Shown: in pieces, positions 4,957-34,228 of the stretch
How the letters are laid out: every line of letters starts with the position of its first letter
How positions within the stretch are numbered: position 1 is the stretch's first letter
From: Chloroflexota bacterium
Lineage (GTDB): Bacteria > Chloroflexota > UBA11872
Length of the DNA stretch: 64,000 bases
Assembly (NCBI GenBank): GCA_022826485.1
Contig: JAJDUU010000021.1
Span: forward strand, 65,558-129,557
Direction of reading: 5' to 3'
The notes under the pieces: model-generated
Databases searched by the model: none
What the model was told of the DNA's origin: nothing
Seen by the model: the letters and a program-made list of their open reading frames with translations, nothing else
Made by a program: the position numbers and the translations under genes

Positions 4957-6102
4957 CTAGGCCCCAGCCACGCGGGCTCGCGCGAGGCCGCGCCGGGCGA
5001 GCACGGTGACCAGCACCAGCGAGCCCGCGAGCGCGGCGACGCCGACCCAGTTCATGCCGCCGGCGCTGAACACCGGGCCGGTCGCGAGACTGCCGGTAGC
5101 CGCGGCAACCGCGGCGAGCGCATCGCCCGCGCCCTGGGTTCGTCCCCGCTCACGCGGCGAGAGGCCGTCGATGAGCAGGGCCGAGCCGGCGACGAAGCAC
5201 ATGTTCCAGCCGTAGCCAACCAGGAACATTGCGAGCAGCATCACGCCCAGGTCCGCCGAGAATGGCGTGAGGACGCTGGCGGCGACCAGTTGCCCCGCGC
5301 CAAGCACGATCACCGGCATGCGTCCGTAGCGGTCCACGAGCCGACCGGTGAGCGCCGCGAGTCCGAACATGCCCACGGTGTGGACCGCCACCGCAATCGC
5401 GATGGTGGTCGGCACGTGGTCGTGGTTGTGCAGGTGCAGCGGCGCAATGGTCATCACCATCACCATGACGAGTTGCCCGACCAGCATGGCGAGCACGGCC
5501 ACCCGGACGTTGACGGCGCGAAAGATTTCGCGCAAGGGGCGGACAGCCGCGTCCGAGCCGCCGCGCGTGACGACATCCAACGGCGACGCGACGGACATGT
5601 CGCGCGGGTCGGGGCGCACGAAGGTCAGAATCAAGCTCACGGCCACGCCAACCAGCACGGCGGCGGCCAGCCAGGGCCCGGCGAGTTCATTGATTCCGGC
5701 CCCCTCGGCCAGGTTCGTGGATACGTAGACGGTCAGCGGGCCGCCGATGGACCCGATGGTGCCGGCGAAGACCATGCGGCCGATGATCCGCCCGCGGCGC
5801 CGCGCCGAATGCACCTCGGCGGCGACGTAGCGCGACTGGTCGCTCGACGCCCGCGACATGCCGAAAACCGCCGCCCCTGCCACCAGTCCGGCGTAGGATT
5901 CGCCCATGATGGCAAGGGCTCCCACCACCGCGCCGACGACGCCCATCAGGTAGCCGAGCGCGAGCGCCGGGCGGCGTCCCGCGGCGTCCATGAGCCAACC
6001 GATCGGATAGGCCGCCAGCGCCCGCCCAAACAGCATGGCGGCGCCCGGTATCCCGGCGTAGGCGGCGTCTCCGGCCAGCGTCGCCGCGGCAATGGTCAAC
6101 AC
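4957..6102 (-). CDS. MFS transporter
   Basis: 381-aa translation with about 12 hydrophobic segments and the MFS loop motif (…GRRPALALGYL… and …DRYGRMPVIVLG…). Confidence 0.7.
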   Translation of the reverse strand: MLTIAAATLAGDAAYAGIPGAAMLFGRALAAYPIGWLMDAAGRRPALALGYLMGVVGAVVGALAIMGESYAGLVAGAAVFGMSRASSDQSRYVAAEVHSARRRGRIIGRMVFAGTIGSIGGPLTVYVSTNLAEGAGINELAGPWLAAAVLVGVAVSLILTFVRPDPRDMSVASPLDVVTRGGSDAAVRPLREIFRAVNVRVAVLAMLVGQLVMVMVMTIAPLHLHNHDHVPTTIAIAVAVHTVGMFGLAALTGRLVDRYGRMPVIVLGAGQLVAASVLTPFSADLGVMLLAMFLVGYGWNMCFVAGSALLIDGLSPRERGRTQGAGDALAAVAAATGSLATGPVFSAGGMNWVGVAALAGSLVLVTVLARRGLARARVAGA

Positions 6103-6296
6103 GGTAAAGCTGGCGCCGCCCGCGGCCGAGAACGAGGCTTGGGCGGCGAAGAGCGCCGCGGTAATGCGCTGTGGGGCGGTCAGCGCCGGAATGATGGACG
6201 TGAGCCTGTCTCCGCGCGTGGGCGTGCGGGCATTCTAGGCGGGAGTGAGACGGGCTATCGTGGTCCCAGACACGGGGCCACAAGGAGCGGGCACTG

Positions 6297-7097
6297 GTGG
6301 GCACATTCGACGGGAAATCAGTGGTGGTGACGGGCGGCGCTCAGGGCATCGGCGGCGGAATCAGCAGCGGCTTCGCGCAGGCCGGGGCGTCGGTCACGGT
6401 AGTGGACATCGACGAAGCGGCTGCCGCAGCGCTGATCGGCAGCCTGGAAGAGGACGGGTGCACGGCGCAGTACGTGATTGCCGACGTGAGCAGCCACGCG
6501 GACGCCAGGCGGGCCATCGCGCAGGCCGTGTCCGCCTTCGGCGGCGTCGATGTCCTGGTGAACAACGCGGGCATTCAGCCGATGGGGTCTTACGTCAAGC
6601 TCGATGCCGAAACCGAGGAGGGCTGGGACCGAATCATCGGGGTCAACCTGAAGGCCTGCTTCCTGATGTCGAAATACGCCATTCCCTCGATGCGCGAGCG
6701 CGGCGGGGGCGTTGTCATCAACATCGCCAGCGTGCAGGGTCTGCAATCGCAACCGATGGTGCCAGCCTACGCGGCATCGAAGGGCGGGATGCTGTCCCTG
6801 ACGCGCAACATGGCGCTGGACTATGCGCCCGAGAACATCCGGGTCGTGGCGATCAACCCGGGCGCGATGGATACGCCCATGCTGCGCACGCAGGCTCGGG
6901 CGGCGGGCGACGAGGACGCCATGGTGGAAACCTGGGGGCGCACGCACCCCATCGGACGCATCGGCCAGCCGGCGGACATTGCCAACGCGGCGATGTTCCT
7001 CGCCAGCGATCAGGCCAGCTTCATCACGGGCGAATACCTGTGCGTCGACGGCGGCTACATGGCCCGAGGCGCCTGGGCGGGGAACAACGAGGAGTAG
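6297..7097 (+). CDS. SDR-family oxidoreductase
   Basis: Rossmann motif TGGAQGIG, NNAG motif, and a YAASK catalytic tetrad segment. GTG start at 6297. Confidence 0.8.
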   Translation: MGTFDGKSVVVTGGAQGIGGGISSGFAQAGASVTVVDIDEAAAAALIGSLEEDGCTAQYVIADVSSHADARRAIAQAVSAFGGVDVLVNNAGIQPMGSYVKLDAETEEGWDRIIGVNLKACFLMSKYAIPSMRERGGGVVINIASVQGLQSQPMVPAYAASKGGMLSLTRNMALDYAPENIRVVAINPGAMDTPMLRTQARAAGDEDAMVETWGRTHPIGRIGQPADIANAAMFLASDQASFITGEYLCVDGGYMARGAWAGNNEE

Positions 7098-7194
7098 TCG
7101 AGGCCCGTCGAGCCACGGCGGCCGGCGCTCGGTCACCACCCGGTCTGGCGAAGGACTTGCCGAGGAATCCGGAGCTCCTACAAGGGCGGAACTG

Positions 7195-7220
7195 GATTCC
7201 GGCTTTCGCCGGAATGACGG
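7195..7220. repeat. REP-like palindromic element, copy 1 (variant GGATTCCGGCTTTCGCCGGAATGACGG)
   Basis: Same 8-bp-stem hairpin as the other copies, with both arms changed compensatorily (CCCGC/GCGGG -> CCGGC/GCCGG). It lies 21 nt downstream of the CopCD stop. Confidence 0.6.
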
Positions 7221-7240
7221 AAGGGTGGCACCACGGCTTC

Positions 7241-9469
7241 CTACGGCGGCAGCGTCTGCAGGTAGTTGACGAGGTTCCAAATGTCGATCAGGGCCAGCGT
7301 CTCCCCGAAGGCCGGCATGGAGGTGTCGGCGATGCCGTTCTCGATGAAGTTGTAAAGCTCACTGTCGGGGTGCAGCGGCACGTGAATCGTCAGGTCGAGC
7401 GGCGGCGGGTCGAGTCCGGCCGCCAGCGGGCCATCGCCCAGGCCGCCCGGACCGTGACAACTGGCGCAGTGGGCCTCGAAGAGCATGCGTCCGGCGTCGA
7501 TCGACTTCTGCTCGGGCGGCACCGGATTGCTGGCGCCGGCGGCGCCCGGTCCGAACGCGGGGGTCGAGACCAAGAACCCGAGCCCGACGAGTGCAGCGCC
7601 GAAGCCGGTGACCGTCAGCCCGCGCCGCACCCGGTCACCCCAGGCCGTCGGATGCAGTGCGCCGAAGGCCAGGAGCAGCCCCAGCGTGGCCAGGGCGATC
7701 GACCACACGCGACGCACGTCGTCCGCGGCCGGCAGAGGCGCGCCGCCGGCCGCCGCGCCGCCCGGCGTCACCGCGAACCGGAACGGCGCGCGCACATCGA
7801 ACTCGCCGGGACGCCGTACGACGACCAGCGCTTGCCAGCGTCCAATGAGACCGATGAAGTCGCCGGTGACGACATAGCGTCCGTCAGCGTCCGGCTCCGG
7901 GCGCAGGTCGCGCTGACCGATGTCCGAGTCCAGGAACTTGAACTGCAGCTCGAGGTCGGCGTTGGTCACGGGCTGTCCGCGATCCTGCAAGGTCACAGCG
8001 GCCGTGTTGATGCCTGGCGTGCCGGGCTGGATGCTCAGCGCCACGTCCAAGTCGTCGATGCGCGTTGCCACGTTGATGCCCCGCGAATCGCCCAGCGCGA
8101 CCTGGCGCGCCGGTTCGAGGCTCGTGAGCAGGCCGACCACGGCTACGACGGCAACTCCCAGCAGCACCTCGGCGGCTACGAGACGCGGCGCCCAGCGGCC
8201 GGCGCCGGCGGGACGATCCCGGTCAAGCCGGCGCCGCGTCCACAGCAGGTTGACGGCGCCCAGGCCAAGGAGCGGCGCCACCAGCACGAGCTTGGCCAGC
8301 AGCGCCCAGCCGTAATCAGTCTGCGCCAGGCGCGGCAGCTCGACGACCTGAATCCAGGTGGCAAACACACCGGTGATGACCAGGGCGCCAACCGAGATCG
8401 TGGCAATCGTCGAGAATCGCGCCAGCAGCGCTGCGAGCAAGCGGCGGCGCGGCTGACCGTCGTGTGCGCGGCGCGCCTGCACCAGCGACAGCAGCAGCGG
8501 CGCCAGACCGCCGGCCCACACGGCGGCCGTAAGCAGATGCAGCACATCGGCGCTGGTTGCCGCGACGGTGGATTCGAGCAGCGCCGCCGCGTGGCTGCCC
8601 AGCGAAACGGTGACGAGCACACCCGCAGACAGGGCTGCGACCGGCAGCCATGCCCACACTGGACGCGCCTGGCTGCCGGCGAGCATGAGCGCCGGCGCCA
8701 GGGCGGCGAGGACGACGGCTCGAACGATCCACAGCGGGCCCCACTGACCCAGGCCAAGCGCACTTCCGACGGCGCTCACCAGCTCCGCCTCGGCATCGCC
8801 CGCGAGGCCCACCGCTTGAGTCAGCAGCAATCCCACGTGCGCGCCGGCGGCGAGGCCCAAGCCAACCCACGCCAGCTCCACATAGCGCGATCCCGCTTGG
8901 CTGATCCCTACCGCACGTGCGGCCGGCGCGAATATCAGCGGCACGTGCACGGCGGTGCCCAGCACCAACATGGCGCCAATGAGCAGCACGGCTCGCAGCA
9001 CGGGCTCGGCGGGGCTGAGCACCAGCGCGGACGCCGGAGCGCTCGCCACATCAGCGTCGATGGGTTCACCCACGCTGAAGACGTACGAACCGCGGATCAG
9101 GTGCCCGTCGACCACCGACAGGGTGCGCCAGGCGACGACGTAGGTGCCGTCAGCGAGCGGCGGCACTCGCACCAGCATGGCGGATCGGTTCGACGGGTCG
9201 ACCTGGCTCGGCCCGTCGGCCACCGACGCCCCGGAGGCATCCAGGACATCGATGCGGCTGAACCCGGGCTCGAGTCGTTCGGAGAACTCGGCGGCGACGA
9301 CCTGCGGCGGCGTGTCAACCGTTGAGCCCGCGGCCGGGATCGCCCGCACGAGGTTGGCGTGGGCGCCGACCGGCACGAGCGCGAGGCATGCGAGCAGGGC
9401 GGCAAGCGCAGTCGCCAGCGCCCAGCGGCGGGCCGGCGGCCCTGTCAGGCGGTGGAGCGACCGTTGCAT
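7241..9469 (-). CDS. Copper transport fusion protein: CopC - CopD - YtkA-like - cytochrome c (YcnJ-like with C-terminal heme domain)
   Basis: Signal peptide, then the CopC domain beginning at His (…VGA|HANLVRAIPAAGSTV… …AWRTLSVVDGHLIRGSY…). About 8 TM helices follow (CopD). Then a YtkA/Ig-like domain (…GINTAAVTLQDRG…GRYVVTGDFIGLIGRWQALVVVRRPG…), two more hydrophobic helices, and a C-terminal class-I cytochrome c with CASCH (…MLFEAHCASCHGPGGLGDGP… …MPAF…). Confidence 0.75.
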   Translation of the reverse strand: MQRSLHRLTGPPARRWALATALAALLACLALVPVGAHANLVRAIPAAGSTVDTPPQVVAAEFSERLEPGFSRIDVLDASGASVADGPSQVDPSNRSAMLVRVPPLADGTYVVAWRTLSVVDGHLIRGSYVFSVGEPIDADVASAPASALVLSPAEPVLRAVLLIGAMLVLGTAVHVPLIFAPAARAVGISQAGSRYVELAWVGLGLAAGAHVGLLLTQAVGLAGDAEAELVSAVGSALGLGQWGPLWIVRAVVLAALAPALMLAGSQARPVWAWLPVAALSAGVLVTVSLGSHAAALLESTVAATSADVLHLLTAAVWAGGLAPLLLSLVQARRAHDGQPRRRLLAALLARFSTIATISVGALVITGVFATWIQVVELPRLAQTDYGWALLAKLVLVAPLLGLGAVNLLWTRRRLDRDRPAGAGRWAPRLVAAEVLLGVAVVAVVGLLTSLEPARQVALGDSRGINVATRIDDLDVALSIQPGTPGINTAAVTLQDRGQPVTNADLELQFKFLDSDIGQRDLRPEPDADGRYVVTGDFIGLIGRWQALVVVRRPGEFDVRAPFRFAVTPGGAAAGGAPLPAADDVRRVWSIALATLGLLLAFGALHPTAWGDRVRRGLTVTGFGAALVGLGFLVSTPAFGPGAAGASNPVPPEQKSIDAGRMLFEAHCASCHGPGGLGDGPLAAGLDPPPLDLTIHVPLHPDSELYNFIENGIADTSMPAFGETLALIDIWNLVNYLQTLPP

Positions 9470-9536
9470 GACCCAGCCTGGGCAAGTTTGGAACCTGAAC
9501 CTACGCGAACTACGACGCCACTAGGTATTGACCGGA

Positions 9537-9566
9537 CTGGATTCCCGCCTTCGCGGGAATGACGGG
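9537..9566. repeat. REP-like palindromic element, copy 2 (CTGGATTCCCGCCTTCGCGGGAATGACGGG)
   Basis: Inverted repeat ATTCCCGC / GCGGGAAT with a 4-nt loop. It sits between the stop of the 9569..10573 gene and the CopCD start. Confidence 0.6.
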
Positions 9567-9568
9567 AA

Positions 9569-10573
9569 TCAGGCACTGCGACGACTCCAAACCGCCAGCG
9601 CGACGGCGCCGGCAGCGGTCACCAGACCCAGGGCGCCTAAGACTATGCCGACGATGCCAATGACGCGCGTGCCGGCCGCCTCGTCGAGCGCCTCGTCCGC
9701 CGAAGCCTGCGAGTTGCGCACCACTCCCTCGAGCTCTCGCACGCTGGGGAGCGCGACGGGGAACTGGGCCACGGCGCGCGACTGCACGGCGTCGAACGTA
9801 TTCGCGCCGGACTCGAAGGCCTCATCGAACGGCTGGCCTTCGATGCTGCCAACGAACCGGAACCGATAGCCGCCAGGCTGCGTCGGAATGAAGTCCGCCG
9901 TGTAGGCGCCGGGGTGGTCGAACAGCGGCGCGAGCGCCATGACCGTCGACTGCCCGGAGGATATGTGGGTGACTTCAACCTGGAGCGTGTCCTCCAGACC
10001 GGTCACCGGGCCGCCGAGGCCGGCGGCGGCATGGGCTTCATCCGTGTGCATCCCGCTCGCGATGAGTTGCGGCTCGCCGGTGCGGTTCAGAAACACGACG
10101 GTGGCGCCCGGCTGGGCGCGAAGCATGGGCGGCACGGCGCCGTCTGCGCGCAACTCGATCTCCACGCGACTTCCCGCCGGTGCGTCCCGTGAGACTTCGA
10201 TCGACCCGGCACTGACGGCGTTGAGGTGGCTGTGGTAGGGAATCGTCATGCCGTCGAGGTCGTGCGGAATCTCCACCTCGAACGCGTCGCCGTCCTCGAA
10301 TGGCGTGGACACGAAGACGCCTCCGTGGGCCATGACGTCCGGCATCTGGCCGCCCGCCATGTCGTCAGGCTCCTGGGCCCCTTTTCTGGTGACCTCGAAA
10401 AATACGGCATTCAGATAGCCCTCGTAGGCGGGTTCGTTGAGGAAGCCGACGACAACGTCGTAGCCGGCCGATTCTCGGCCTTCGTGGGCCAGCACGCCCG
10501 AGGCCGCCGTGGCGGATAGGACCATCGCCGTCACCAGCGCGCGCACCGCGGCACGCGCGGATGTCCATGGCAT
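9569..10573 (-). CDS. Secreted, C-terminally membrane-anchored protein of the copper operon (possible Cu-binding protein with N-terminal His after the signal peptide)
   Basis: ATG at 10573 gives MPWTSARAAVRALVTAMVLSATAASGVLA|HEG… (signal peptide, then His). A C-terminal hydrophobic anchor (…VIGIVGIVLGALGLVTAAGAVALAVW) follows. It is co-directional with and immediately upstream of CopCD. No confident family assignment. Confidence 0.5.
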   Translation of the reverse strand: MPWTSARAAVRALVTAMVLSATAASGVLAHEGRESAGYDVVVGFLNEPAYEGYLNAVFFEVTRKGAQEPDDMAGGQMPDVMAHGGVFVSTPFEDGDAFEVEIPHDLDGMTIPYHSHLNAVSAGSIEVSRDAPAGSRVEIELRADGAVPPMLRAQPGATVVFLNRTGEPQLIASGMHTDEAHAAAGLGGPVTGLEDTLQVEVTHISSGQSTVMALAPLFDHPGAYTADFIPTQPGGYRFRFVGSIEGQPFDEAFESGANTFDAVQSRAVAQFPVALPSVRELEGVVRNSQASADEALDEAAGTRVIGIVGIVLGALGLVTAAGAVALAVWSRRSA

Positions 10574-10649
10574 GTCAGTTCTCCTTAGAGGCTGTGCACG
10601 GCGGCGTGAAACGACGAGACGCCTGCCGTGGTCGTGGTCGACTCGTCGA

Positions 10650-10997
10650 CTAGGCTCGTGGCGGTGGATGCGCCAGCTTTGGCGCCCATTCGGCGACCCG
10701 CTGGATGGCGAGCGAGGTCCGCCGCGACGCGACCAGGAGCAGCGCCGCGGCGAGCAACGCCGGAATGACCCCCGCCAGCAGCCCGGACACGCCCTCGGGG
10801 AACTCGCCCGAGGACGCCTCCGAATCGGTCTCCGCTGGCGCGTCGCCGGTCGCAAGGTGCACATGGCGGTGCCCTTCGTGACCGGGCGGAACCTCCATGT
10901 CGATGGCCTGCGCGAGCAGCACCGTCAGCACGGGCGCCGCGAGGGCAAGCAGCGCCGCTCGCGCGAGGATGCGCCCACCGACGCCGGATAGCTTCAT
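10650..10997 (-). CDS. Small His-rich membrane/periplasmic protein (putative metal-binding)
   Basis: ATG at 10997 gives MKLSGVGGRILARAALLALAAPVLTVLLAQA… then PPGHEGHRHVHLATGD and a C-terminal TM segment. It is the first gene of the minus-strand copper cluster. Confidence 0.4.
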   Translation of the reverse strand: MKLSGVGGRILARAALLALAAPVLTVLLAQAIDMEVPPGHEGHRHVHLATGDAPAETDSEASSGEFPEGVSGLLAGVIPALLAAALLLVASRRTSLAIQRVAEWAPKLAHPPPRA

Positions 10998-11155
10998 GGC
11001 TGCGGATACTCGCGGGAATCGACTGAGCGAACGAGCCAAGCTTACTGCCGCCGTGCGAGGGCCTCGCCAGCGGTGTACGCGATTCTGGGGTCGGAGCGCC
11101 GCGTGGTAGCCCAATGTCGGAGGGCACCCTTGATTCGTCGGTTGACTCATGGGGA

Positions 11156-11184
11156 TGGATTCCCGCCTTCGCGGGAATGACGGA
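11156..11184. repeat. REP-like palindromic element, copy 3 (ATGGATTCCCGCCTTCGCGGGAATGACGG)
   Basis: Same core as the other copies. It lies upstream of the copper cluster and gives rise to the spurious 'DSRLRGNDG' and 'IPAKAGI' peptides in the ORF track. Confidence 0.6.
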
Positions 11185-11221
11185 TTGAAGGCGTTCCGCC
11201 ACCCTCACGGAAGCCTTCCGA

Positions 11222-11488
11222 CTACAGGCGTGCAGACATATCAACGGGAAGGACAACCAGCATCGTGGAGCCGGCGCGGTTGGCGGACGCTCCATCGTCG
11301 GCGGCGGGAACATTGGCCCGGATGTGCTCGATGACCGCCGCGACCTCGCGTTCGGCGACGCCGACCAACAGCGTCACGTTGCCGCGCCGGAGAAACCCGC
11401 CCGTGGTGTTGATGCGCGTGACGCGAAACTCATCCTCGACCAGCGCCGCCTGGACCGCGTTGGCGTCGTCATTCGACAACACGGCCAT
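11222..11488 (-). CDS. darA: PII-like cyclic-di-AMP receptor (DarA/PstA, DUF970 family)
   Basis: MAVLSNDDANAVQAALVEDEFRVTRINTTGGFLRRGNVTLLVGVAEREV… matches the DarA/YaaQ pattern (F-R-V-T-K/R-x-x-T-T-G-G-F-L-x-x-G-N-T-x-L-x-G-V). Confidence 0.6.
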   Translation of the reverse strand: MAVLSNDDANAVQAALVEDEFRVTRINTTGGFLRRGNVTLLVGVAEREVAAVIEHIRANVPAADDGASANRAGSTMLVVLPVDMSARL

Positions 11489-11577
11489 GACGAGGCGTTC
11501 GACTGGATTCTCGGGTTGCACGAGCCACCAGCGCGAATTAGGTAGCGCGCGACGCTAGCACCGGCTAAATCGAGGGG

Positions 11578-12405
11578 TCAATCTCCGGGGGGCGGGAACG
11601 CCAGGTGCAAACCTTGCGCATGCGCCAGATCGAGCATGGCCTGGTGGATGCGCCCGTTGCTGAACACACAGCGGCGGCTGTCGGGGCCCATGGGACGCCC
11701 ATAGACGTCGGTGGCGCGACCACCGGCCCGCTCGACGATCAACGTCGCCGCCGCCTGGTCCCACCACTTGACGTTGCCCAGGAGCGCGCCGTCAAAGCGT
11801 CCCGCCGCCACCCAGGCCATCTCGAGGGCGGCGCTGCCGGTCAGCCTGACGCGATGAAAGACGGCGGCCGCCGCGGGCAGCGCTTCGCCAAGGCGCTTCG
11901 TGTCCTCCGGCGAGGCGCCGGCCTGCGCCCAGGCCACGGCTGAAATGGCGGGATCGTCGCGATCCGTGACGCGCACCGTCGCGCCGTTGCACGCCGCGGG
12001 CCCGTCGGCGGTGGCGGTAAACAGCTCGTCGCGCACCGGATCGAAGATCACGCCGACGTCAATGCGCCCGTGGGTCGCATGCGCCACGCTGACGCAAAAC
12101 TGCGGCTGGCCGCGAGAGTAGTTGTCGGTGCCGTCGAGCGGATCGATGACCCAAACGTCGGGTCCCAGGATGTCGTCGTGCGGTGCTTCTTCGGAGAGAA
12201 TCACGTGGTCGGGGAACCGGGCCATAATCACCTCGCGGATGGCGGCATCGGCAGCCATATCGGCATCGGTGACCACCGTCCGCTCGCCCTGGTAGGTCTT
12301 CCAGCGAATGTCGATGGCGCCGGCCAATCGCTGCATGAGCTCGCCGCCGGCCGCGCGCGCCGCCAGGGTGGCGGCCTCGAGCATGGCGGCGGGGTCGGCG
12401 GTCAT
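11578..12405 (-). CDS. Inositol monophosphatase family protein (IMPase/SuhB-like)
   Basis: Motifs …EE…DPLDGT… (WVIDPLDGTDNY) and the WDxAAG region (…WDQAAATLIV…). Confidence 0.75.
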   Translation of the reverse strand: MTADPAAMLEAATLAARAAGGELMQRLAGAIDIRWKTYQGERTVVTDADMAADAAIREVIMARFPDHVILSEEAPHDDILGPDVWVIDPLDGTDNYSRGQPQFCVSVAHATHGRIDVGVIFDPVRDELFTATADGPAACNGATVRVTDRDDPAISAVAWAQAGASPEDTKRLGEALPAAAAVFHRVRLTGSAALEMAWVAAGRFDGALLGNVKWWDQAAATLIVERAGGRATDVYGRPMGPDSRRCVFSNGRIHQAMLDLAHAQGLHLAFPPPGD

Positions 12406-12635
12406 GAGTTTCGGGCGTCGCGCCGACCGAGCGACATCGAGCCGGCGGAGGGTGCGGTGTGCATGGACGTATTGCTTTGCCGTTGGCCTGGCGGCGGCAT
12501 CATAGACGGCGGCTCATCCGCGGACCATGGCGCAAGGCGCGTTGTCCGACCGGCGCACCACGAACGCCGCCGTGGACCACAACCCGCACGGGGTACGCTA
12601 GCGCCCGTGCGCCGCGCGTATCGAGAGTGCAGGAC

Positions 12636-13811
12636 ATGCATCCGCTGACGTTTGCCGACCAAGAGCTCACGAACCTCCGTGGCAAGGGCCTGTGGCGGCC
12701 CCTGCGCGTGTTGGAATCTCCGCAGGGTCCGCGAATTCGCATCGGCGGAGACGACCTGCTGAACATGTCATCGAACGACTATCTAGGGCTGGCCAACGAC
12801 CCCGAGATGCGCGCCGCCGCGCAGGCTGCGGTGGATGCGTTTGGCGCCGGCGCCGGCGCGGTGCGGACCATTGCCGGGACGATGGAAATCCACGAGGCGC
12901 TGGAGCGTGAGATCGCCGAGTGGAAGGGCGTGGAAGCGACCCTGGTCTTGCAGTCGGGCTTCGCCGCCAATCTGGGCGCGGTGGCCTCGCTGGTGGGGCG
13001 TGACGACGTGATCCTGAGCGACGAGCTCAACCACGCCAGCATCATCGACGCGTGCCGGCTCAGCCGCGCCACCGTGCGCCGTTTCGCCCACGGCGACGCG
13101 GATTCGCTGCGCGCCGAGTTGCGGCAATGTGACGGCTATCCGCGCAAGCTGGTGGTGACCGATGGAGTGTTCAGCATGGATGGCGACATCGCCCCGCTGC
13201 CGGATCTGGTCGAGGTCGCCGAGGACTTTGGCGCGATGGTGATGGTGGACGACGCCCACGGCAGCGGCGTGCTGGGGCGGGGCGGGCGCGGCACGGTGGA
13301 CCACTTTGGACTCAAGGGCAGAGTCCACGTGCAGATGGGCACGCTGTCCAAGGCCATCGGATCGATGGGCGGCTACCTGGCGGGCTCGCAGACCTTGCGG
13401 GACTACCTGATCCACCACGCGCGACCCTTCCTGTTCTCGACCTCACATCCTCCAGCCGTGGTGGGCGCCACGCGGGCCGCCATCGCGATCCTCTCGCGTG
13501 ACACGCAGCGGGTGGAGAAGCTCTGGGAGAACGCACGTCAATTCAAGGCCGGCCTGGCGGACCTTGGGCTCAATACGGGACGCAGCGAGACGCCGATCAC
13601 GCCGGTGATCGTGGGCGAGGCGGAGACGGCGCACGCGTTGAGTGACAAGCTCCGCAGCCTTGGGATATTCGTTCAAAGCGTGGCGTATCCAACCGTGGCG
13701 CGGGACGCCGCGCGGGTGCGGGTGATGGTGAGCGCCGCGCACAGTCGCGACGATCTGGACCAGGCCATTGGTGCGTTTGCGCAGGCCGCCACCGACCTGG
13801 ACCTCAACTGA
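12636..13811 (+). CDS. Class-II PLP aminotransferase of the 8-amino-7-oxononanoate synthase / glycine C-acetyltransferase family
   Basis: …NMSSNDYLGLANDPE…, …SDELNHASIIDACRLS…, …VDDAHGSGVLG… and the PLP-Lys motif …GTLSKAIGSMGGY…. ATG at 12636 (MHPLTFADQELTNLRGKG…). Kbl and BioF cannot be told apart by eye. Confidence 0.8.
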   Translation: MHPLTFADQELTNLRGKGLWRPLRVLESPQGPRIRIGGDDLLNMSSNDYLGLANDPEMRAAAQAAVDAFGAGAGAVRTIAGTMEIHEALEREIAEWKGVEATLVLQSGFAANLGAVASLVGRDDVILSDELNHASIIDACRLSRATVRRFAHGDADSLRAELRQCDGYPRKLVVTDGVFSMDGDIAPLPDLVEVAEDFGAMVMVDDAHGSGVLGRGGRGTVDHFGLKGRVHVQMGTLSKAIGSMGGYLAGSQTLRDYLIHHARPFLFSTSHPPAVVGATRAAIAILSRDTQRVEKLWENARQFKAGLADLGLNTGRSETPITPVIVGEAETAHALSDKLRSLGIFVQSVAYPTVARDAARVRVMVSAAHSRDDLDQAIGAFAQAATDLDLN

Positions 13812-13880
13812 GGGGCTTGTCGATGGGCGGTTTTGGCTCCGAGATTGACCCGTGAGACTGGGTAGAGTCCAAGAGGTCCG

Positions 13881-14999
13881 GTGCTAGAATCCCGCCCATC
13901 TGCGACGGAGGGCCTAGCGGCGGTGGCCGATCAGCTCGATGAGCTCCGCCGCGCGGTGGACGCGTCGGATGATGAATTGGTTCGGCTGCTGAGCCAGCGC
14001 GCGGCCATCGCCCGCGAAATCGGCAGCCTCAAGGCCGAGACTTCGAGACCGTCATATGCTCCCGATCGCGAGCGCGCGATTCTGGATCGCGTGACCGCAG
14101 CCAATCACGGTCCCCTGAGCGCATCGCACATTCGAGACATCTTCCGCGAGATCATCTCGGCCTGCCGCAGCCTCGAAGAGCCTGAACGGGTGGTGTTCCT
14201 GGGACCGGCCTACACCTTTAGCCACGAGGCCGCGCGCGCTCACTTCGGCCGCTCGGCCAGCTATCTTCCCGCCGACTCGTTTCGCGAGGTCTTTGCTCAC
14301 GTCGAGCGCGGCGACGCCGCCTATGGCCTCGTCCCGGTGGAGAACTCAACCAGCGGGACCATTGGCGAGACCCTGGATCTGTTTTCGGAACACGATGTCT
14401 CGATTTGCGGCGAAGTGGTCGTGCCCATTTCGCATAACCTCATCGCCTCGGCCATCGAGGACTCGTTCGACACGGTCTTTTCGCACGCCCAGGCGCTGCA
14501 CCAGTGCCGCGACTGGCTGGCGCGCCAGTTGCCGACGGCGACGCGGCACGAGGTGGCCAGCACGTCCGAGGCCGCGCAGCGGGCCAGCGCGCAGCCCGGA
14601 GCGGCCGCCATTGGCACGGTGGCTGCCGCCGAGGCGTATGGGCTCATAGTCGTCCAGCAGCACATCCAGGACATCGCGGCCAACCGGACTCGCTTCTATG
14701 TGATCGCGCGCCGGCCGGCCAGCCGCACCGGACGAGACCGCACGGCATTGCTGGTTTCCATCCGCGACCGCGTGGGCGCGCTGCACGACATGCTCGGCAC
14801 GCTGCGCAGCCACGACGTCAACCTGAGCTACATCCAATCGCGTCCGTCCCGCACCAGGCCGGGCGACTACCTGTTCTTCCTCGAATTGACCGGCCACCCG
14901 GACGACGCCAACGTGGAGCAAGCGCTCGACGAGCTGGCCACGACGAGCGTGCTCGCTCGCGTGCTGGGCGCCTGGCCGACAAGCCCGGCACCGGCCTAG
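13881..14999 (+). CDS. pheA: Bifunctional chorismate mutase / prephenate dehydratase (P-protein)
   Basis: N-terminal chorismate mutase helices (…LDELRRAVDASDDELVRLLSQRAAIAREIG…), the PDT domain (…VVFLGPAYTFSHEAA… …ESTSG…) and a C-terminal ACT domain. GTG start at 13881. Confidence 0.8.
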   Translation: MLESRPSATEGLAAVADQLDELRRAVDASDDELVRLLSQRAAIAREIGSLKAETSRPSYAPDRERAILDRVTAANHGPLSASHIRDIFREIISACRSLEEPERVVFLGPAYTFSHEAARAHFGRSASYLPADSFREVFAHVERGDAAYGLVPVENSTSGTIGETLDLFSEHDVSICGEVVVPISHNLIASAIEDSFDTVFSHAQALHQCRDWLARQLPTATRHEVASTSEAAQRASAQPGAAAIGTVAAAEAYGLIVVQQHIQDIAANRTRFYVIARRPASRTGRDRTALLVSIRDRVGALHDMLGTLRSHDVNLSYIQSRPSRTRPGDYLFFLELTGHPDDANVEQALDELATTSVLARVLGAWPTSPAPA

Positions 15000-15220
15000 C
15001 CGGGGTTCGCAACTCCGGCGCGGGGCCGGGAATGGAGGCGGCGCGCCAACTCGCGCCGTGCCAGGAAGATGCGGCGACCGCAGCCCGTACACCGGAGCCC
15101 GACGTCACCGCCCACGCGCGTCACCGTCCACGTATCGGCGCCGCACGGGTGCGGCTTGCGCATGCGCACGGTTTCTCCGACGGCGAACTGCGGAATGTCG
15201 GCCGACGGCGACTCGGTCAC
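14996..15220 (-). CDS. DUF951-family small protein
   Basis: …GETVRMRKPHPCGADTWTVTRVGGDVGLRCTGCGRRIFLARRELARRL… matches the conserved DUF951 signature (KPHPCG…W…RVGADI…C..CGR). There is a 4-nt overlap with pyrF. Confidence 0.5.
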   Translation of the reverse strand: MTESPSADIPQFAVGETVRMRKPHPCGADTWTVTRVGGDVGLRCTGCGRRIFLARRELARRLHSRPRAGVANPG

Positions 15221-16092
15221 GCCGACCGCACCGCGTTGATGCGGTCGCGCAGCTCGCGCACGGCGGCGCGCGTCGCGAGCGCATAGTCGGCGTCGGCCGA
15301 TGCCCAGAGCGCGTTGCGTCCCGCGTTGATAAGCACCCCGGCGGGCGCCTCACCAAAGCCGTGCCGCACGACCGATTCCAGGTCGCCGCCTTGGGCGCCG
15401 ACGCCCGGCGCCAGCAGCGGCACGGTTGGCGCCGCGGCACGCACGCGGCGCACGTCGCCGGCCCGGGTGGCGCCGACGACCATCCCCAAGTTGCCCAACG
15501 CCGACCGTGACTGAATCTCACCGGCTATGCGCATGAACAGTGGATCCGCGTCCCGCGAACTCCCCTGAACGGCGTCCGCGTCCGGATTGCTGCTGCGGCC
15601 CCACACGAACACGCCGCGCGCCGGATCGACGAGCATTGGCTCGACCGTGTCCCAACCGCCGTAGAGGTCAACGGTCACCGCATCGGCATCGAATGCATCG
15701 AATGCCGCGCGAGCGTATCGCTCCATCGTGTCCGAAATATCCCCAAACTTACCGTCAAGAATCACGATGGCGCGATGGTCAATATGGTCGATGATATCGG
15801 CGAGCAGTCGAATCCCATCGGCGCCTAGCGCAAGATAAAACGCGAGATTTGGCTTGAAGGCCGCTACGTGTTCGACAGATGCGTCTACGACACTTCGCAG
15901 AAACTCTCGAGCACCTTCAATCGTGTGTGGAAGATTGGTGGGAAGTTGCGTCAGGACAACATCCAGACCAAGGCACACCCACGACTGCTTGGCCTCAGCC
16001 TCGGCCCACAGCCTTGCGGAGAATTCCGGCGGGTCCCCGGAAGCGTTGAGCGCTTCGATCTTCTCGGCCCGCGGCCGTGGTCGATGACTCAT
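15217..16092 (-). CDS. pyrF: Orotidine 5'-phosphate decarboxylase (type 2)
   Basis: ATG at 16092 (MSHRPRPRAEKIEAL…). Motifs …VCLGLD… and …DGKFGDI… and an overall long-form OMPdecase layout. Confidence 0.8.
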   Translation of the reverse strand: MSHRPRPRAEKIEALNASGDPPEFSARLWAEAEAKQSWVCLGLDVVLTQLPTNLPHTIEGAREFLRSVVDASVEHVAAFKPNLAFYLALGADGIRLLADIIDHIDHRAIVILDGKFGDISDTMERYARAAFDAFDADAVTVDLYGGWDTVEPMLVDPARGVFVWGRSSNPDADAVQGSSRDADPLFMRIAGEIQSRSALGNLGMVVGATRAGDVRRVRAAAPTVPLLAPGVGAQGGDLESVVRHGFGEAPAGVLINAGRNALWASADADYALATRAAVRELRDRINAVRSA

Positions 16093-16148
16093 GCTCGCGG
16101 TCAATGGTAGCCTATCGGCCCCGAACAGATCGCGCCTGGTGCGCGCCG

Positions 16149-16379
16149 ATGAGACTCCGCAAGCTGTTTCGAAGAGAACCGCCCCCCAGCGAGTGGCCAA
16201 TCCGCTACACTGTCAAAGTGATGCCGCGCGAGACACTGCGAACGATTGCCGAGCGGGAGTATGGCGATCAACGCCAGTGGCAGATCATCTTCGACCGCAA
16301 TAAGTGGCGATTTGACGGCGAGGATCCTCAGGCGGTTTATCCCGGAATGGATCTCGATATCCCGGAACCCGCGACATAG
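16149..16379 (+). CDS. LysM-domain small protein
   Basis: …YTVKVMPRETLRTIAEREYGDQRQWQIIFDRNKWRFDGEDPQAVYPGMDLDIPEP… fits the LysM pattern. Confidence 0.45.
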   Translation: MRLRKLFRREPPPSEWPIRYTVKVMPRETLRTIAEREYGDQRQWQIIFDRNKWRFDGEDPQAVYPGMDLDIPEPAT

Positions 16380-16394
16380 GCCAAGGCCGGGTAT

Positions 16395-16483
16395 TGGTGC
16401 CGAAGGTCGGGATCGAACCGACACGAGGAGTTACCTCACTGGTTTTTGAGACCAGCGCGTCTACCAATTCCGCCACTTCGGCG
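16395..16483 (-). tRNA. tRNA-Leu (anticodon CAA)
   Basis: Reverse complement: GCCGAAGTGGCGGAATTGGTAGACGCGCTGGTCTCAAAAACCAGTGAGGTAACTCCTCGTGTCGGTTCGATCCCGACCTTCGGCACCA. It shows an acceptor stem, anticodon loop CUCAAAA, a long variable arm, a T-arm GTCGG/TTCGATC/CCGAC, and an encoded CCA. Confidence 0.85.
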
Positions 16484-16485
16484 CG

Positions 16486-16562
16486 TGGCAGGAGTGGAGG
16501 GACTCGAACCCCCGACCTACGGTTTTGGAGACCGTTGCTCTAGCCAACTGAGCTACACTCCT
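16486..16562 (-). tRNA. tRNA-Trp (anticodon CCA)
   Basis: Reverse complement: AGGAGTGTAGCTCAGTTGGCTAGAGCAACGGTCTCCAAAACCGTAGGTCGGGGGTTCGAGTCCCTCCACTCCTGCCA, with anticodon loop CUCCAAA. It is 2 nt from the tRNA-Leu 5' end. Confidence 0.85.
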
Positions 16563-16787
16563 CCGCCGGTTTCACGGTAGCACAGGATCGGCGCGCCGCG
16601 GCCGCCGTTTTGAGCCTCGCGCGAGCCCAAGTCATACCGGCGCTACCCGCGCAGACCGGGGCGACACGGCGACGCGGACCGTAGCATTCCTGGGACGCGG
16701 GTGGTCGTTGATTCTGTCAGATCGAACACACATTGGCCACTCAGTTTGTACCAATGGATCAGTGTGACGATTCAAGTTGGCCGAGGC

Positions 16788-16816
16788 ATAGATTCCCGCC
16801 TTCGCGGGAATGACGA
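16788..16816. repeat. REP-like palindromic element, copy 4 (ATAGATTCCCGCCTTCGCGGGAATGACGAGGGG)
   Basis: Same core as the other copies. It lies in the intergenic region between tRNA-Trp and the 16979..17929 gene. Confidence 0.6.
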
Positions 16817-16978
16817 GGGGTAGAATCCAGGTGTTCTCCTGGCCTGGAGCATTCACTGCCATTGCACGGATCACAGATCATTCACTGGAAGCAAATCGTT
16901 CGACAGAGGTGCTCAGGATGGAACCAACATGGTTTTCACTTAGACTCGAACAATCGACGTCATCGATTTAGACCTGAC

Positions 16979-17929
16979 TTATTCGGCCTGCATCCAATGC
17001 CGATATTCGCTCCAAATGTCGTCTGGTCCCCTGTCCGGCTTGAAGACCAAGCGCCCCTGCCAACGGTACGCTTCGCCGGCCTGGCATTGCTTGATGACGA
17101 TGCCGAAGTCCCACGCCGGGTTGCGCGGCCCGCCCCCGGTCGGCTGGATGGCAAACCGCAGATGGTCATCCGTGCGCAGCATCAGCGCCAGCACCATGTT
17201 CCGCCAGCGGCCGAACATCACCGGCTCGACGTAGCGCAGGGGTTGGATGTTGTGCAGCAGGCGTCCCGCGGGATCCGGTTCGCCGGGCAGCAGCGCCGCT
17301 TCCCGCTCCGAGGCGAAGGCGCGTGCATCGTGCGGCGGCTCGGCCAGCGTCGCGGCCCTGTCGCTCTCCGCCCCTGCCCGAGGCCGGGCGCGAATGTAGG
17401 TGGTCTTGACCTCGGGCCGCCGGATATAGCAGGCCCAGAACAACCCCACCCAGTCGCCGGTGAACGAGCCTGGATGCGGGGACATCACGGTTTCCAGGTC
17501 GACGTAGTGGGGCGGTACGACTCTGAATGTGGTCTGCACGTCGACGCGTTGCGGTGGTTGGACGCGCGTCGTCAGGACTACGGTGGATTCGTCCACGCGC
17601 GTGAGGCTGCTGGGCGTGGGTGCGCCGCCGGAGCGCCCATCGACCCAGCGCGGTCGCATTGATGAGCCGGCGGCGTCGTAGACAAACTCGAAATTCAGGC
17701 CGCTTCCCCCGGCCACGCCGAAGATGTTCTCCGCCGGGCCGTGGCGGCTGTAGAGCTGTCGCATGCCGTTGTAGCCGGTGTACCTGTCGAAGCGAAAAGG
17801 GCCGTCTTCAAAGGTGCCGTCCTTGATCGCGGCCATGCGGGCGTCGTCCCGAGTCGGGGGGTCTGAAGCGTCGGCGTTGTCGACGATCTCGACGAACAGA
17901 TCGCCGGCGGTTATGAACTGGGTGCCCAC
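16979..17929 (-). CDS. Hypothetical protein (316 aa), divergent partner of the tandem paralog pair
   Basis: A long ORF on the opposite strand from no better-supported gene. I recognise no confident family. It shares a ~110-bp divergent region with the 18042 gene. Confidence 0.45.
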   Translation of the reverse strand: MGTQFITAGDLFVEIVDNADASDPPTRDDARMAAIKDGTFEDGPFRFDRYTGYNGMRQLYSRHGPAENIFGVAGGSGLNFEFVYDAAGSSMRPRWVDGRSGGAPTPSSLTRVDESTVVLTTRVQPPQRVDVQTTFRVVPPHYVDLETVMSPHPGSFTGDWVGLFWACYIRRPEVKTTYIRARPRAGAESDRAATLAEPPHDARAFASEREAALLPGEPDPAGRLLHNIQPLRYVEPVMFGRWRNMVLALMLRTDDHLRFAIQPTGGGPRNPAWDFGIVIKQCQAGEAYRWQGRLVFKPDRGPDDIWSEYRHWMQAE

Positions 17930-18041
17930 GCGCGCCCTCCAGTGCTGTCTCGTGGATGAGATAGCGTCTGATACGCTGCGCCGTCAACTGGTGGCCCGCG
18001 AAATCGACGCCGAGACGCGGGTCGGCGGAAGGGGTTGTGCC

Positions 18042-31804: not shown

Positions 31805-33778
31805 ATGAGCCAACACTTACGCGCAGGCGTCTCGCGACGGCGCGTCCTCAAGGGCGCTGCCGCGGGACTGTTTGGCGCAGCCGGGGCAGCCGTGTTGGCG
31901 GCGTGCGGTGAAACGCAGGTCGTCACCAAGGAAGTCATCAAGGAAGTCCCGGTCGAGACGGTCGTGACCCGGGAAGTGGTCAAGGAAGTTCCGGTCGAGA
32001 CGGTCGTGACCAAGGAAGTCGTCAAGGAAGTCGCGGTCGAGAAGCTGGTGACCACCGAGGTCGTCAAGCAGGTCGAGGTCATCAAGGAAGTCCCGGTTGA
32101 GGTCGAGAAGGTCGTGACGAAGGAAGTCGAGGTCATCAAGGAAGTCACGGCCGAGATGATGATTCCTGAGGGTCCGATCAGCGGCGGCACGCTGAATCAC
32201 AGCGGCAGCGGCCCGAACCACCAGGACATCTTCAACCCGCTCAAGCAGGTCAGCAGCTCGCAGGCCTACATCACGGACTACGTGTTCATGCCCCTGTGGT
32301 ATGGCGACACGTGGGGCGCCGGTGACACGCCGGCCATGACGGGCGAGTGGGACAAGGGCGTGGCCAGCAGCTGGGACGAGGTCGAGCGGGCCCGCGTCTA
32401 CAACTTCCACCTCAACCCCGACGTCACCTGGCACGACCAGGTGCCGCTGACGGCGGACGACGTGCTGTTCGGCGCCAAGATGGGGCTGGACAAGAACTAC
32501 GGCTCGGGTCAGCACAAGAAGGCCTGGGGCCGGATCGAGGGCGCGGAAGCCTGGGGCGAGAACCCCACGGACAACGTGGAGGACGTTCCCGGCATCACCA
32601 AGCTGGACGAGATGACGGTGCAGATCGCGATCGATCGGCCCGACTCCGCCTGGTGGGCGAGCCGCGACTGGCACCTCCCGCCGATGGCCCGGCACCACTA
32701 CGAGGGTCTTGACCCGGCGACGGCAATCCAGACCCGGGCGCTGAACCCGCTGGGCAACGGCCCGATGATTTGGGAGCGCTACGTCACCCAGCAGTTCGCC
32801 GACATGACGGCGCACAAGGCCTTCGCGTACGGCGCGCCGTACGTCGATGACTACGTCGTCCGCTACGGTGAGCGAAACGCGCTGGACGCGGCCATGGAGG
32901 CCGGCGAGCAGGACTTCCACCGCGCCAGCAACATCGAGGCCTTCCAGCGACTCGCGAGCCTTGGACACCTGCGGCCATTCCCGCAGCGCTCGCCGTTCGG
33001 CGGGCACGTGTTCTTGAACCAGTCCGCCGAGATCTTCTCCGACATGACCCTCGAGCAGCAGTCGCTGATGATCGAGGCCATGGTGCGGGCAGTGGACCGG
33101 GACACGATCAACAACGAGCTCCACGCGGGCACGCTGTTCATCTCGGACTACATCTTCGAGCACGTGGCGCTGATGCAGGACCCGCCGGAAGGCACCTTCC
33201 GCGCCATGCCTTACGACCCGGACGCGGCGCGCGCCCTGGTCGAGGAGGCCCAGTGGGACTCCGAGAAGGAGATCCAGTGGATCAAGTGGGGGCCACCGAC
33301 GCCGACGGACCTGGCGCTCAAGAACTACTGGGAGCAGGTGGGCATCAAGGTTGAGTTCTTCCTGGTCGACGGCTCAGCGGTGATCGAGAAGCTGTACCAG
33401 GAGCGGGTCCACGACCTGGTCCTCGCCAACATGGGCGGCGACCAGGCCGTGGTGGATGCGTGTCTGCGCGTCTGCAGCGACCGGGTCTACGAGCTCGGCG
33501 GCTGGAACCACTCGAACATCAACCGCCCGTGGATCGACGAGGCCTACGCCGACATGTTCGCGGCGGAGGACAACGAGGCGCTGCGCGAGCGATGGATCGA
33601 ATTCGCCACGCGACTCCACTCCAAGGGCAACATGGTGGCCGGGCTGCTGTGGCGCGGTTCGCTGCGGAACCTGTATCACAGGCGTCTGCAGGGGGCGTTC
33701 TACATGCAGTTCTACGCCATGCCGGTGCACTCGCCGATCGAGCGGGTGTGGCTGGACGAGTACTGGGACGAGCGGTAG
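31805..33778 (+). CDS. ABC transporter substrate-binding lipoprotein, family 5 (peptide/oligosaccharide type), with repetitive linker
   Basis: Tat motif SRRRVLKGAAAGLFGAAGAAVLAAC plus lipobox Cys. A ~75-aa KEVPVETVVT repeat linker precedes an SBP_bac_5-like body. There is an RBS GGAGG about 10 nt upstream of ATG 31805. Confidence 0.8.
   Translation: MSQHLRAGVSRRRVLKGAAAGLFGAAGAAVLAACGETQVVTKEVIKEVPVETVVTREVVKEVPVETVVTKEVVKEVAVEKLVTTEVVKQVEVIKEVPVEVEKVVTKEVEVIKEVTAEMMIPEGPISGGTLNHSGSGPNHQDIFNPLKQVSSSQAYITDYVFMPLWYGDTWGAGDTPAMTGEWDKGVASSWDEVERARVYNFHLNPDVTWHDQVPLTADDVLFGAKMGLDKNYGSGQHKKAWGRIEGAEAWGENPTDNVEDVPGITKLDEMTVQIAIDRPDSAWWASRDWHLPPMARHHYEGLDPATAIQTRALNPLGNGPMIWERYVTQQFADMTAHKAFAYGAPYVDDYVVRYGERNALDAAMEAGEQDFHRASNIEAFQRLASLGHLRPFPQRSPFGGHVFLNQSAEIFSDMTLEQQSLMIEAMVRAVDRDTINNELHAGTLFISDYIFEHVALMQDPPEGTFRAMPYDPDAARALVEEAQWDSEKEIQWIKWGPPTPTDLALKNYWEQVGIKVEFFLVDGSAVIEKLYQERVHDLVLANMGGDQAVVDACLRVCSDRVYELGGWNHSNINRPWIDEAYADMFAAEDNEALRERWIEFATRLHSKGNMVAGLLWRGSLRNLYHRRLQGAFYMQFYAMPVHSPIERVWLDEYWDER
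31915..32150 (+). repeat. In-frame tandem coding repeats encoding (K/R)EV(P)VE(T)VVT linker in SBP1
   Basis: DNA unit ~gtcaaggaagtcccggtcgagacggtcgtgaccaaggaagtc repeated with variants. The protein reads VVTKEVIKEVPVETVVTREVVKEVPVETVVTKEVVKEVAVEKLVTTEVVKQVEVIKEVPVEVEKVVTKEVEVIKEV. Confidence 0.8.
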
Positions 33779-33860: not shown

Positions 33861-34228
33861 GCGTTGCGCCGTCTCCGCGGTGAGCCGCGGCGGTTCAGCC
33901 GTTAGGCACTGTTGACGAGTTTCCGCTTTCTAAACTACTTTGCCCCAAAGTGCGGGCTGACGTTGGGCGGATCGATGCCGAATTCAGGCATTCCAACGGA
34001 CAACTGGGACCGCACGCGGCCTGCGCCGCGAGGCCGACGAGCCATTAGGCCGGGCCAGCCGGACAAGCCCTACTTCAACGTTCTTCCGGCCGCCCACTCC
34101 TCCACAGCACACCGTTCCGCGGTCTATCGCCGTCTGACTGAAGGGAGGAGGTCCAGACCCAAACGCGGATAGCCGCTGGAGCCGTGGTCGGACACTGAAT
34201 CTGTCGCACTGTGCAAACACGAGAGGGA

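Follow-up and report, generated by a model that had tools for sequence, protein, structure and literature searches.

What is the short palindrome that recurs around the copper gene copCD in a 64,000-nt stretch of an uncultured Chloroflexota bacterium (lineage UBA11872; GenBank assembly GCA_022826485.1, contig JAJDUU010000021.1, positions 65,558 to 129,557 of the forward strand), and does it act in RNA or in DNA? A sequence-only reading of this 64-kb stretch, referred to here as the window, had described four dispersed REP-like palindromes that punctuate a copper operon and could serve as mRNA stabilizers, terminators, or attenuators. We conclude, with a probability of roughly 0.78, that these four elements and a fifth copy just outside the window are representatives of the Neisseria Transformation Sequence (NTS), or Ssn-related motif (SRM), and that they are targets of an Ssn-type nuclease. 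A mechanism at the level of DNA is favored over a role in RNA, and an effect on RNA is a possible by-product.

Sequence, structure, and identity of the element

With up to 3 mismatches permitted, the 27-mer GGATTCCCGCCTTCGCGGGAATGACGG matches the window at exactly four places, all on the plus strand (7194-7220, 9539-9565, 11157-11183, and 16790-16816), against 0 in 100 dinucleotide-preserving shuffles; looser patterns applied to the whole 64 kb returned no further copy. The conserved unit is 28 nt long and oriented, and its four copies lie on the same strand, the genes that they accompany being on the minus strand. Read on that strand and compared with the published NTS consensus, they are as follows.

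7192..7219, minus strand: NTS copy D, CGTCATTCCGGCGAAAGCCGGAATCCAG; 26/28, the two mismatches being paired and thus compensated; CCGGC/GCCGG stem and GAAA loop; match to the SRM pattern
9537..9564, minus strand: NTS copy C, CGTCATTCCCGCGAAGGCGGGAATCCAG; 28/28
11155..11182, minus strand: NTS copy B, CGTCATTCCCGCGAAGGCGGGAATCCAT; 27/28, one mismatch
16788..16815, minus strand: NTS copy A, CGTCATTCCCGCGAAGGCGGGAATCTAT; 27/28, one mismatch

The fifth copy, CGTCATTCCGGCGGAGGCCGGAATCCAG, is located in the same genome 577-603 nt before position 1 of the window (L128 9380-9407, minus strand), between an RraA-like gene and a lipocalin gene and antisense to both, which places all five copies on one DNA strand.

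The proposal that these are dispersed, extragenic, hairpin-forming elements held up well. All four window copies are intergenic, while the intergenic fraction of the window is about 12% by a rough open reading frame (ORF) call, and the predicted RNA fold of each copy, on either strand, is an 8-bp stem (ATTCCCGC/GCGGGAAT) closed by a 4-nt loop, exactly as proposed; the stem is perfect in the window copies. Folded as single-stranded DNA (ssDNA) with DNA parameters, every copy likewise forms the 8-bp stem and its 4-nt loop; energies range from -8.9 to -9.6 kcal/mol and z-scores against shuffles from -2.8 to -3.2, and 0-2 of 200 shuffles fold equally well. Copy D (27-mer match at 7194) reads ATTCCGGC TTTC GCCGGAAT and has both arms altered, C:G being exchanged for G:C with pairing intact, and its loop differs too. 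Beside copy C, at 9565-9580, a partly repeated arm gives GATTCCCGTCATTCCCGCG on the minus strand, with which the predicted fold can also pair over a greater length.

The copies are clustered: the four in the window span 9.6 kb out of 64 kb, and with the fifth the span is 17.4 kb out of the 74 kb covered. Those in the window are singles rather than inverted doublets. Similarity between copies stops within about 31 nt and the flanks are unrelated and do not align, which rules out a larger duplicated segment and bears out the claim of independent occurrences. A CRISPR repeat, suggested by a resemblance to the type I-E stem, was ruled out by the spacings of 2345, 1618, and 5633 nt and the lack of an array.

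When the exact 20-mer was matched against the literature no hit was obtained, and 11-mers of the motif led to the description of the NTS, with the consensus CGTCATTCCCGCGMAVGCGGGAATCYRG (Chenal et al. 2025, Nat Commun, PMC11893778). The NTS encloses the older neisserial dRS3 palindrome, ATTCCC-N8-GGGAAT, and adds oriented flanks to it, and the wider family is captured by the degenerate SRM pattern HGTCWYN(0-2)YYVSBRHN(0-5)WNVSBRGN(0-2)RNCYNB (PMC11893778). All four window copies match the SRM pattern, loose as it is, and only one additional match to it occurs in the 64 kb. The exact dRS3 palindrome is present in three of the four (9541-9560, 11159-11178, and 16792-16811), copy D (7196-7215, ATTCCG...CGGAAT) falling outside the dRS3 definition. 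In the unit, the 8-bp/4-nt hairpin is accompanied by fixed single-stranded flanks, CGTC before the stem and C-Y-R-G after it, and all five copies, the four in the window and the one outside it, keep both the GTC that precedes the stem and the C that directly follows it.

These flanking bases are the ones on which the enzyme described for the family depends. SsnA is a monomeric, 94-aa, single-domain GIY-YIG nuclease (cd10448) that binds and cuts the NTS only as ssDNA, a few nucleotides 5' of the motif, and is inactive on the complementary strand, on double-stranded DNA, and on RNA; its binding depends most on the C just 3' of the palindrome and its cleavage on the three bases (GTC) 5' of it, the enzymology having been reported for the Neisseria and Wolbachia enzymes (PMC11893778). 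In N. meningitidis, SsnA reduces transformation by, and integration of, incoming DNA that bears the NTS, whose copies cluster around genes, with 2% of them intragenic; ssn genes frequently have the motif on their flanks, and SRMs and Ssn homologues are widespread (PMC11893778). By analogy, the hairpin in the window would form when the NTS-bearing strand becomes single stranded, and the cleavable strand would be the minus strand. As each of the five copies has an intact stem with the 3' C and the 5' GTC beside it, all would be substrates for a putative Ssn-type enzyme whose gene would lie in another part of this Chloroflexota genome.

Candidate Ssn proteins were collected with an approximate, consensus-like query, the matched proteins themselves being real database entries: 8000 proteins of about 95 aa from several phyla, assigned to PF01541 and named GIY-YIG nuclease family protein. 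The Ssn-type proteins have Y6, Y17, and E64, the residues that were mutated in the published study (PMC11893778). A profile built from 120 of them and run over about 2 Mb of fetched loci (designated here by L numbers) identified only three Ssn-type ORFs, each at most 50 nt from an NTS.

L054 6147-6476, strand not given: Ssn-type ORF between NTS copies at 6117 and 6444
L184 922-1263, strand not given: Ssn-type ORF with an NTS within 50 nt
L131 2825-3493, strand not given: Ssn-type ORF with an NTS within 50 nt

The family across phyla and at corresponding sites in relatives

The pattern ATTCCSGCNNNNGCSGGAATGAC was used for a census of contigs from one genome per species and then of viral contigs (IMG/VR), and it returned at least 120 loci in genomes (L003-L122) and at least 120 in viral contigs (L129-L248). 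Among the matches listed, to which the counts in this and the next paragraph refer, hosts belong to more than 20 phylum-level groups, including Alpha-, Beta-, Gamma-, and Deltaproteobacteria, Bacteroidota, Planctomycetota, Nitrospirota, Acidobacteriota, Verrucomicrobia, Gemmatimonadetes, Elusimicrobia, Cloacimonas, Zixibacteria, Latescibacterota, Vampirovibrionales, Saccharibacteria, Parcubacteria, and Paceibacteria; one locus is from Neisseria lactamica and about 15 are from Chloroflexota. One metagenome-assembled genome (MAG) of Nanoarchaeota also carries the motif (L116 1512). The archaeal and viral matches, among them the viral locus L150, where 13.5 kb hold 13 copies, may be prophage flanks, binning errors, or true phage copies.

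Positions beyond the search pattern agree with the NTS flanks: GTC is preceded by C (68%) or T, and GGAAT is followed by C-C/T-A-G/T, as in CCAG, CCAT, and CTAG. The loop is biased as well, with G at position 1 in 161/176 copies and A at position 3 in 165/176. At the variable stem position, genome copies have C:G in 146 cases and G:C in 32 (178/178 paired), and viral copies have C:G in 142 and G:C in 29 (171/171 paired), so that the position is paired in all 349 copies although the pattern permitted unpaired combinations. CCCGC/GCGGG and CCGGC/GCCGG are two coexisting stem subfamilies found throughout the family. The sequence-only reading had taken copy D for a compensatory stem mutation; pairing is indeed kept there, but the change is not simply one double mutation, since two coexisting subfamilies are involved, and the universal pairing of these positions therefore makes compensatory change a general property of the family.

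In many Proteobacteria the element forms convergent doublets 43-126 nt apart (25 of 28 close pairs on opposite strands, among the matches listed). Of the 43 listed loci with a local GC skew above 0.03, 32 have the NTS on the C-rich strand, a preference that may reflect a replication- or transcription-strand bias; in the window, GC skew is too weak for the replication strand to be assigned. Half-sites resembling the 5' arm (GTCATTCCCGC or GTCACTCCCGC) were also observed 10-25 nt 5' of full copies (L124 ~8120-8135, L127 ~12245-12260, L050, L060, L082, and L084), near the expected Ssn cut position.

A comparison with seven related genomes, in which CopCD is 79-93% identical and gene order is kept, revealed that NTS copies occupy the same sites in these genomes as in the window.

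Site A (before the tRNAs): filled in the window, L123, and L127; decayed in L124; absent or unrecognizable in L126
Site B (after the cyclic-di-AMP receptor gene): filled in the window, L249, L123, and L124; empty in L126, L127, and L251
Site C (before copCD): filled in the window, L249, L123, L126, and L127; altered in L124 and decayed in L250; absent in L251
Site D (after copCD): filled in the window, L249, L123, L126, and L127; another palindrome in L124; empty in L250 and L251, which have a 21-nt spacer only

The site of the fifth copy is filled in L124/L125 too, at 22154. Between genomes, the NTS is far better conserved than the 40-nt flanks, with an identity of 0.92 against 0.41 at site A and of 0.89 against 0.30 at site D. 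Subfamily membership changes at a given site: at site D the stem is CCGGC in the window, L249, and L123 and CCCGC in L126 and L127, while at site C it is CCGGC in L123 and L124 and CCCGC in the others. Such a switch can be explained either by (i) a paired double substitution or by (ii) replacement or conversion from another copy, and the data fit both. The copy at site C of L124 (~9877-9928) has a 24-nt insertion in the loop and a decayed 3' arm (GCCAGAAT), and at site D of L124/L125 (~12230-12275) a different GC-rich palindrome, CCCTCTCCCCAGGGGAGAGGG, is followed by CCGGGG and is possibly a member of another dispersed hairpin family.

Some relatives carry the element within a module of about 120 nt, made up of ~20 nt, the NTS, and ~65 nt (L249 4011-4134, L123 8099-8225, and L124 8132-8247). 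The modules are 81-84% identical and are located at site B in L123 and L124 and at site D in L249, being absent from the window; these differing sites suggest that NTS-bearing DNA moves or is copied. Spacers were too diverged or rearranged for insertion boundaries or target duplications to be defined from empty and filled sites. Judged by these alignments, the copies are long-standing residents of these positions, kept far better than the spacers around them, with occasional loss, decay, and subfamily switching.

Weighing of the alternatives

Several points weigh against the identification as a functional Ssn target. Regular-expression and profile searches for an ssn gene were negative in the window, in a further 10 kb of its scaffold, and in syntenic 22-kb loci from relatives, the portion of this genome covered being about 74 kb. 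The main text of the paper describing the NTS makes no mention of Chloroflexota, and a biological role has been demonstrated only for naturally competent Neisseria (PMC11893778). The high identity at orthologous sites could stem from conversion between copies and not from selection. Lastly, four of the five copies are sense and lie 4-163 nt past the stop of a gene on the same strand, an arrangement that would suit an element acting in RNA.

Such an RNA-level role, in which transcribed 3' hairpins would block 3' exonucleases, terminate transcription weakly, or punctuate the copper operon, is nevertheless unlikely. It can draw on the predicted stability of the RNA hairpins, on the different GC-rich palindrome that stands in place of the NTS at site D of L124, and on a preference for convergent over divergent spacers in the 120 listed genome loci (27 versus 13). 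In the same loci, however, copies that stand alone between tandem genes show no sense bias (23 sense, 19 antisense), all these orientation counts being approximate, as they come from a crude ORF caller that miscalled two weak genes on L001, and the fifth copy is antisense to its neighbors. No copy in the window is followed by a T/U run, the tails reading CCAGTTCCGC, CCAGTCCGGT, CCATCCCCAT, and CTATGCCTCG, and none of the four is among the terminator-like sites called in 6000-18000. Rfam searches, over the whole window at gathering thresholds and over 7-17 kb at E<=1, returned tRNAs only, with no family match for the element even at the relaxed threshold. A plain hairpin, moreover, gives no account of why, in more than 20 phyla, the unpaired flanks are invariant and the loop is biased, and SsnA does not bind the RNA form (PMC11893778). 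The function as stabilizer, terminator, or attenuator offered by the sequence-only reading is thus not supported.

It is more improbable still that the copies are neutral or decaying relics of a past selfish burst, with neither a partner enzyme nor a present function. Their low density outside the cluster (0 copies in the other 54 kb of the window) and the lack of a nearby ssn gene would agree with this, as would the decay or loss seen in relatives (site A in L124, site C in L250, the insertion at site C of L124, and the empty sites in L126, L127, L250, and L251). Yet intact copies are about 90% identical where the adjacent spacers are 30-40% identical, each functionally critical base is kept in all five copies of this genome, and unpaired stem variants are never seen among the listed copies. 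Scarcely credible, in turn, is a classical REP or REPIN mobilized by a REP-associated tyrosine transposase (RAYT; a Y1 transposase related to IS200/IS605), or an operator for a copper regulator. The REP-like appearance pointed out initially is a fair likeness, in that the elements are short extragenic palindromes that occur in many Proteobacteria as inverted doublets 43-126 nt apart, but membership of the REP/RAYT family fails on two counts: the GT[AG]G head is missing, the feet being CGTC and C-Y-R-G (here CCAG, CCAT, and CTAT), and the same 23-28 nt are found in more than 20 phyla among the matches listed, so the element is not lineage specific. No Y1 transposase is present among the ~50 window ORFs scanned with Pfam. 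An operator would account for the three copies around copper genes and is made very unlikely by the copies at tRNA and lipocalin genes and by the unrelated contexts in other phyla.

Within the NTS/SRM interpretation, the persistence of the copies at fixed positions raises a further idea, which we regard as doubtful: the copies that bracket copCD and its neighbors may be long-lived, under purifying selection, and co-opted by the host rather than recent selfish insertions, whether (i) as ssDNA-cleavage boundaries that shape exchangeable or repairable blocks of genes in a lineage not known to be competent, or (ii) as 3' RNA hairpins that work independently of Ssn.

Gene context and comparison with known systems

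The genes adjoining the copies, positioned by the gene calls of the source contig, are listed below.

7241..9469, minus strand: copCD-cytochrome c fusion gene, 742 aa (Pfam CopC, CopD, and Cytochrome_CBB3)
9569..10573, minus strand: 334-aa gene (gene call), between copies B and C
10650..10997, minus strand: 115-aa gene (gene call), between copies B and C
11222..11488, minus strand: cyclic-di-AMP receptor (PII-like) gene (gene call)
16979..17929, minus strand: 316-aa gene (gene call), with tRNA-Trp and tRNA-Leu also nearby

Copy D follows the copCD stop by 21 nt, in the spacer where copCD and adh_short converge; copy C occupies a 99-nt gap, its start 4 nt past the stop of the 334-aa gene and its end 67 nt short of the copCD start; copy B lies upstream of the 115-aa gene, at a distance of 157 nt, and 39 nt past the stop of the cyclic-di-AMP receptor gene; and copy A, 163 nt past the stop of the 316-aa gene, precedes tRNA-Trp and tRNA-Leu by 225 nt. 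The placement of three copies relative to the copper genes had therefore been described correctly. The closest named homologues of the copCD fusion come from Chloroflexi/Chloroflexota MAGs, whereas the 115-aa and 334-aa genes match no Pfam family at E<=1, and a copper role is not shown for them. Because copies also adjoin tRNA genes and a lipocalin gene, the association with copper genes is probably incidental. The clustering around particular genes and the bracketing of a gene by two copies are nonetheless a published trait of the NTS, and copCD, which lies between copies C and D in direct orientation, is an instance of the NTS-gene-NTS arrangement.

The window falls on a metagenome scaffold of 252 kb, KELL22-1_SAMN22237336_METAG-scaffold_75, and its remaining genes are ordinary chromosomal ones, gyrA, a Clp ATPase, accA/accD, rtcB, moeA, and pfk among them. 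Neither a transposase, including RAYT/Y1_Tnp, nor a GIY-YIG gene was found among the ~50 ORFs scanned with Pfam, and no prophage or IS110-type recombinase is present near the copies. Elsewhere in the window, two adjacent genes for family-5 solute-binding proteins (31805-33778 and 34211-36292) have 42-nt tandem repeats in their 5' parts (31873-32160 and 34315-34633), which encode V/K/E-rich units of 14 aa.

The kind of element, an NTS/SRM enclosing dRS3, is already known, and the host lineage is not named in the main text of the paper that describes it (PMC11893778). What the present analysis provides is a proper name for the element, which turns a REP-like RNA hairpin into a DNA-level target of a site-specific single-strand nuclease, and an extension of the published family to Chloroflexota and, among the matches listed, to more than 20 phylum-level groups and to viral contigs. 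It also accounts for spurious small ORFs in the annotations of many MAGs: the peptides DSRLRGNDG and IPAKAGI, which the sequence-only reading had attributed to the element, do occur in ORF translations across the copies. The long persistence at the same sites while spacers decay, and the variable stem pair that is always paired (in every listed copy), are additions that bear on what Ssn/NTS pairs do outside Neisseria and leave the picture of the nature of the element unchanged.

Among known systems, Rho-independent terminators share with these copies a GC-rich hairpin past stop codons; they differ in that here there is no T-tract, the sequence is conserved and not the structure alone, and both orientations to genes occur across genomes. 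The resemblance to the REP/BIME/REPIN and RAYT systems of Proteobacteria goes further, as both are short extragenic palindromes, often past gene ends and in many genomes arranged as doublets, and in both an ssDNA hairpin is recognized by a small dedicated enzyme whose gene the repeats flank. However, the fold of the NTS enzyme is GIY-YIG and not HUH/Y1, the element lacks the GT[AG]G head, and its sequence is nearly identical across phyla instead of being genus specific. In Neisseria, dRS3 repeats flank NIME mosaic elements and serve as the integration site of Nf filamentous prophages. Three of the four window copies contain the exact dRS3 palindrome, and the ~120-nt module of the relatives recalls NIME-type mosaics; on the other hand, copy D is outside the dRS3 definition, no prophage or recombinase of the kind lies near, and dRS3 was defined without the oriented flanks. 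Compared with the NTS/SRM family itself, the differences are that the host is an uncultured member of a phylum missing from the main text of the description (PMC11893778), that only single copies occur, that the same sites are kept across relatives with 79-93% CopCD identity, and that no cognate ssn gene was seen in the ~74 kb read. Shared with the family are the 28-nt consensus, the 8-bp/4-nt hairpin with its oriented flanks, an intergenic location, a clustering near genes, and the NTS-gene-NTS arrangement.

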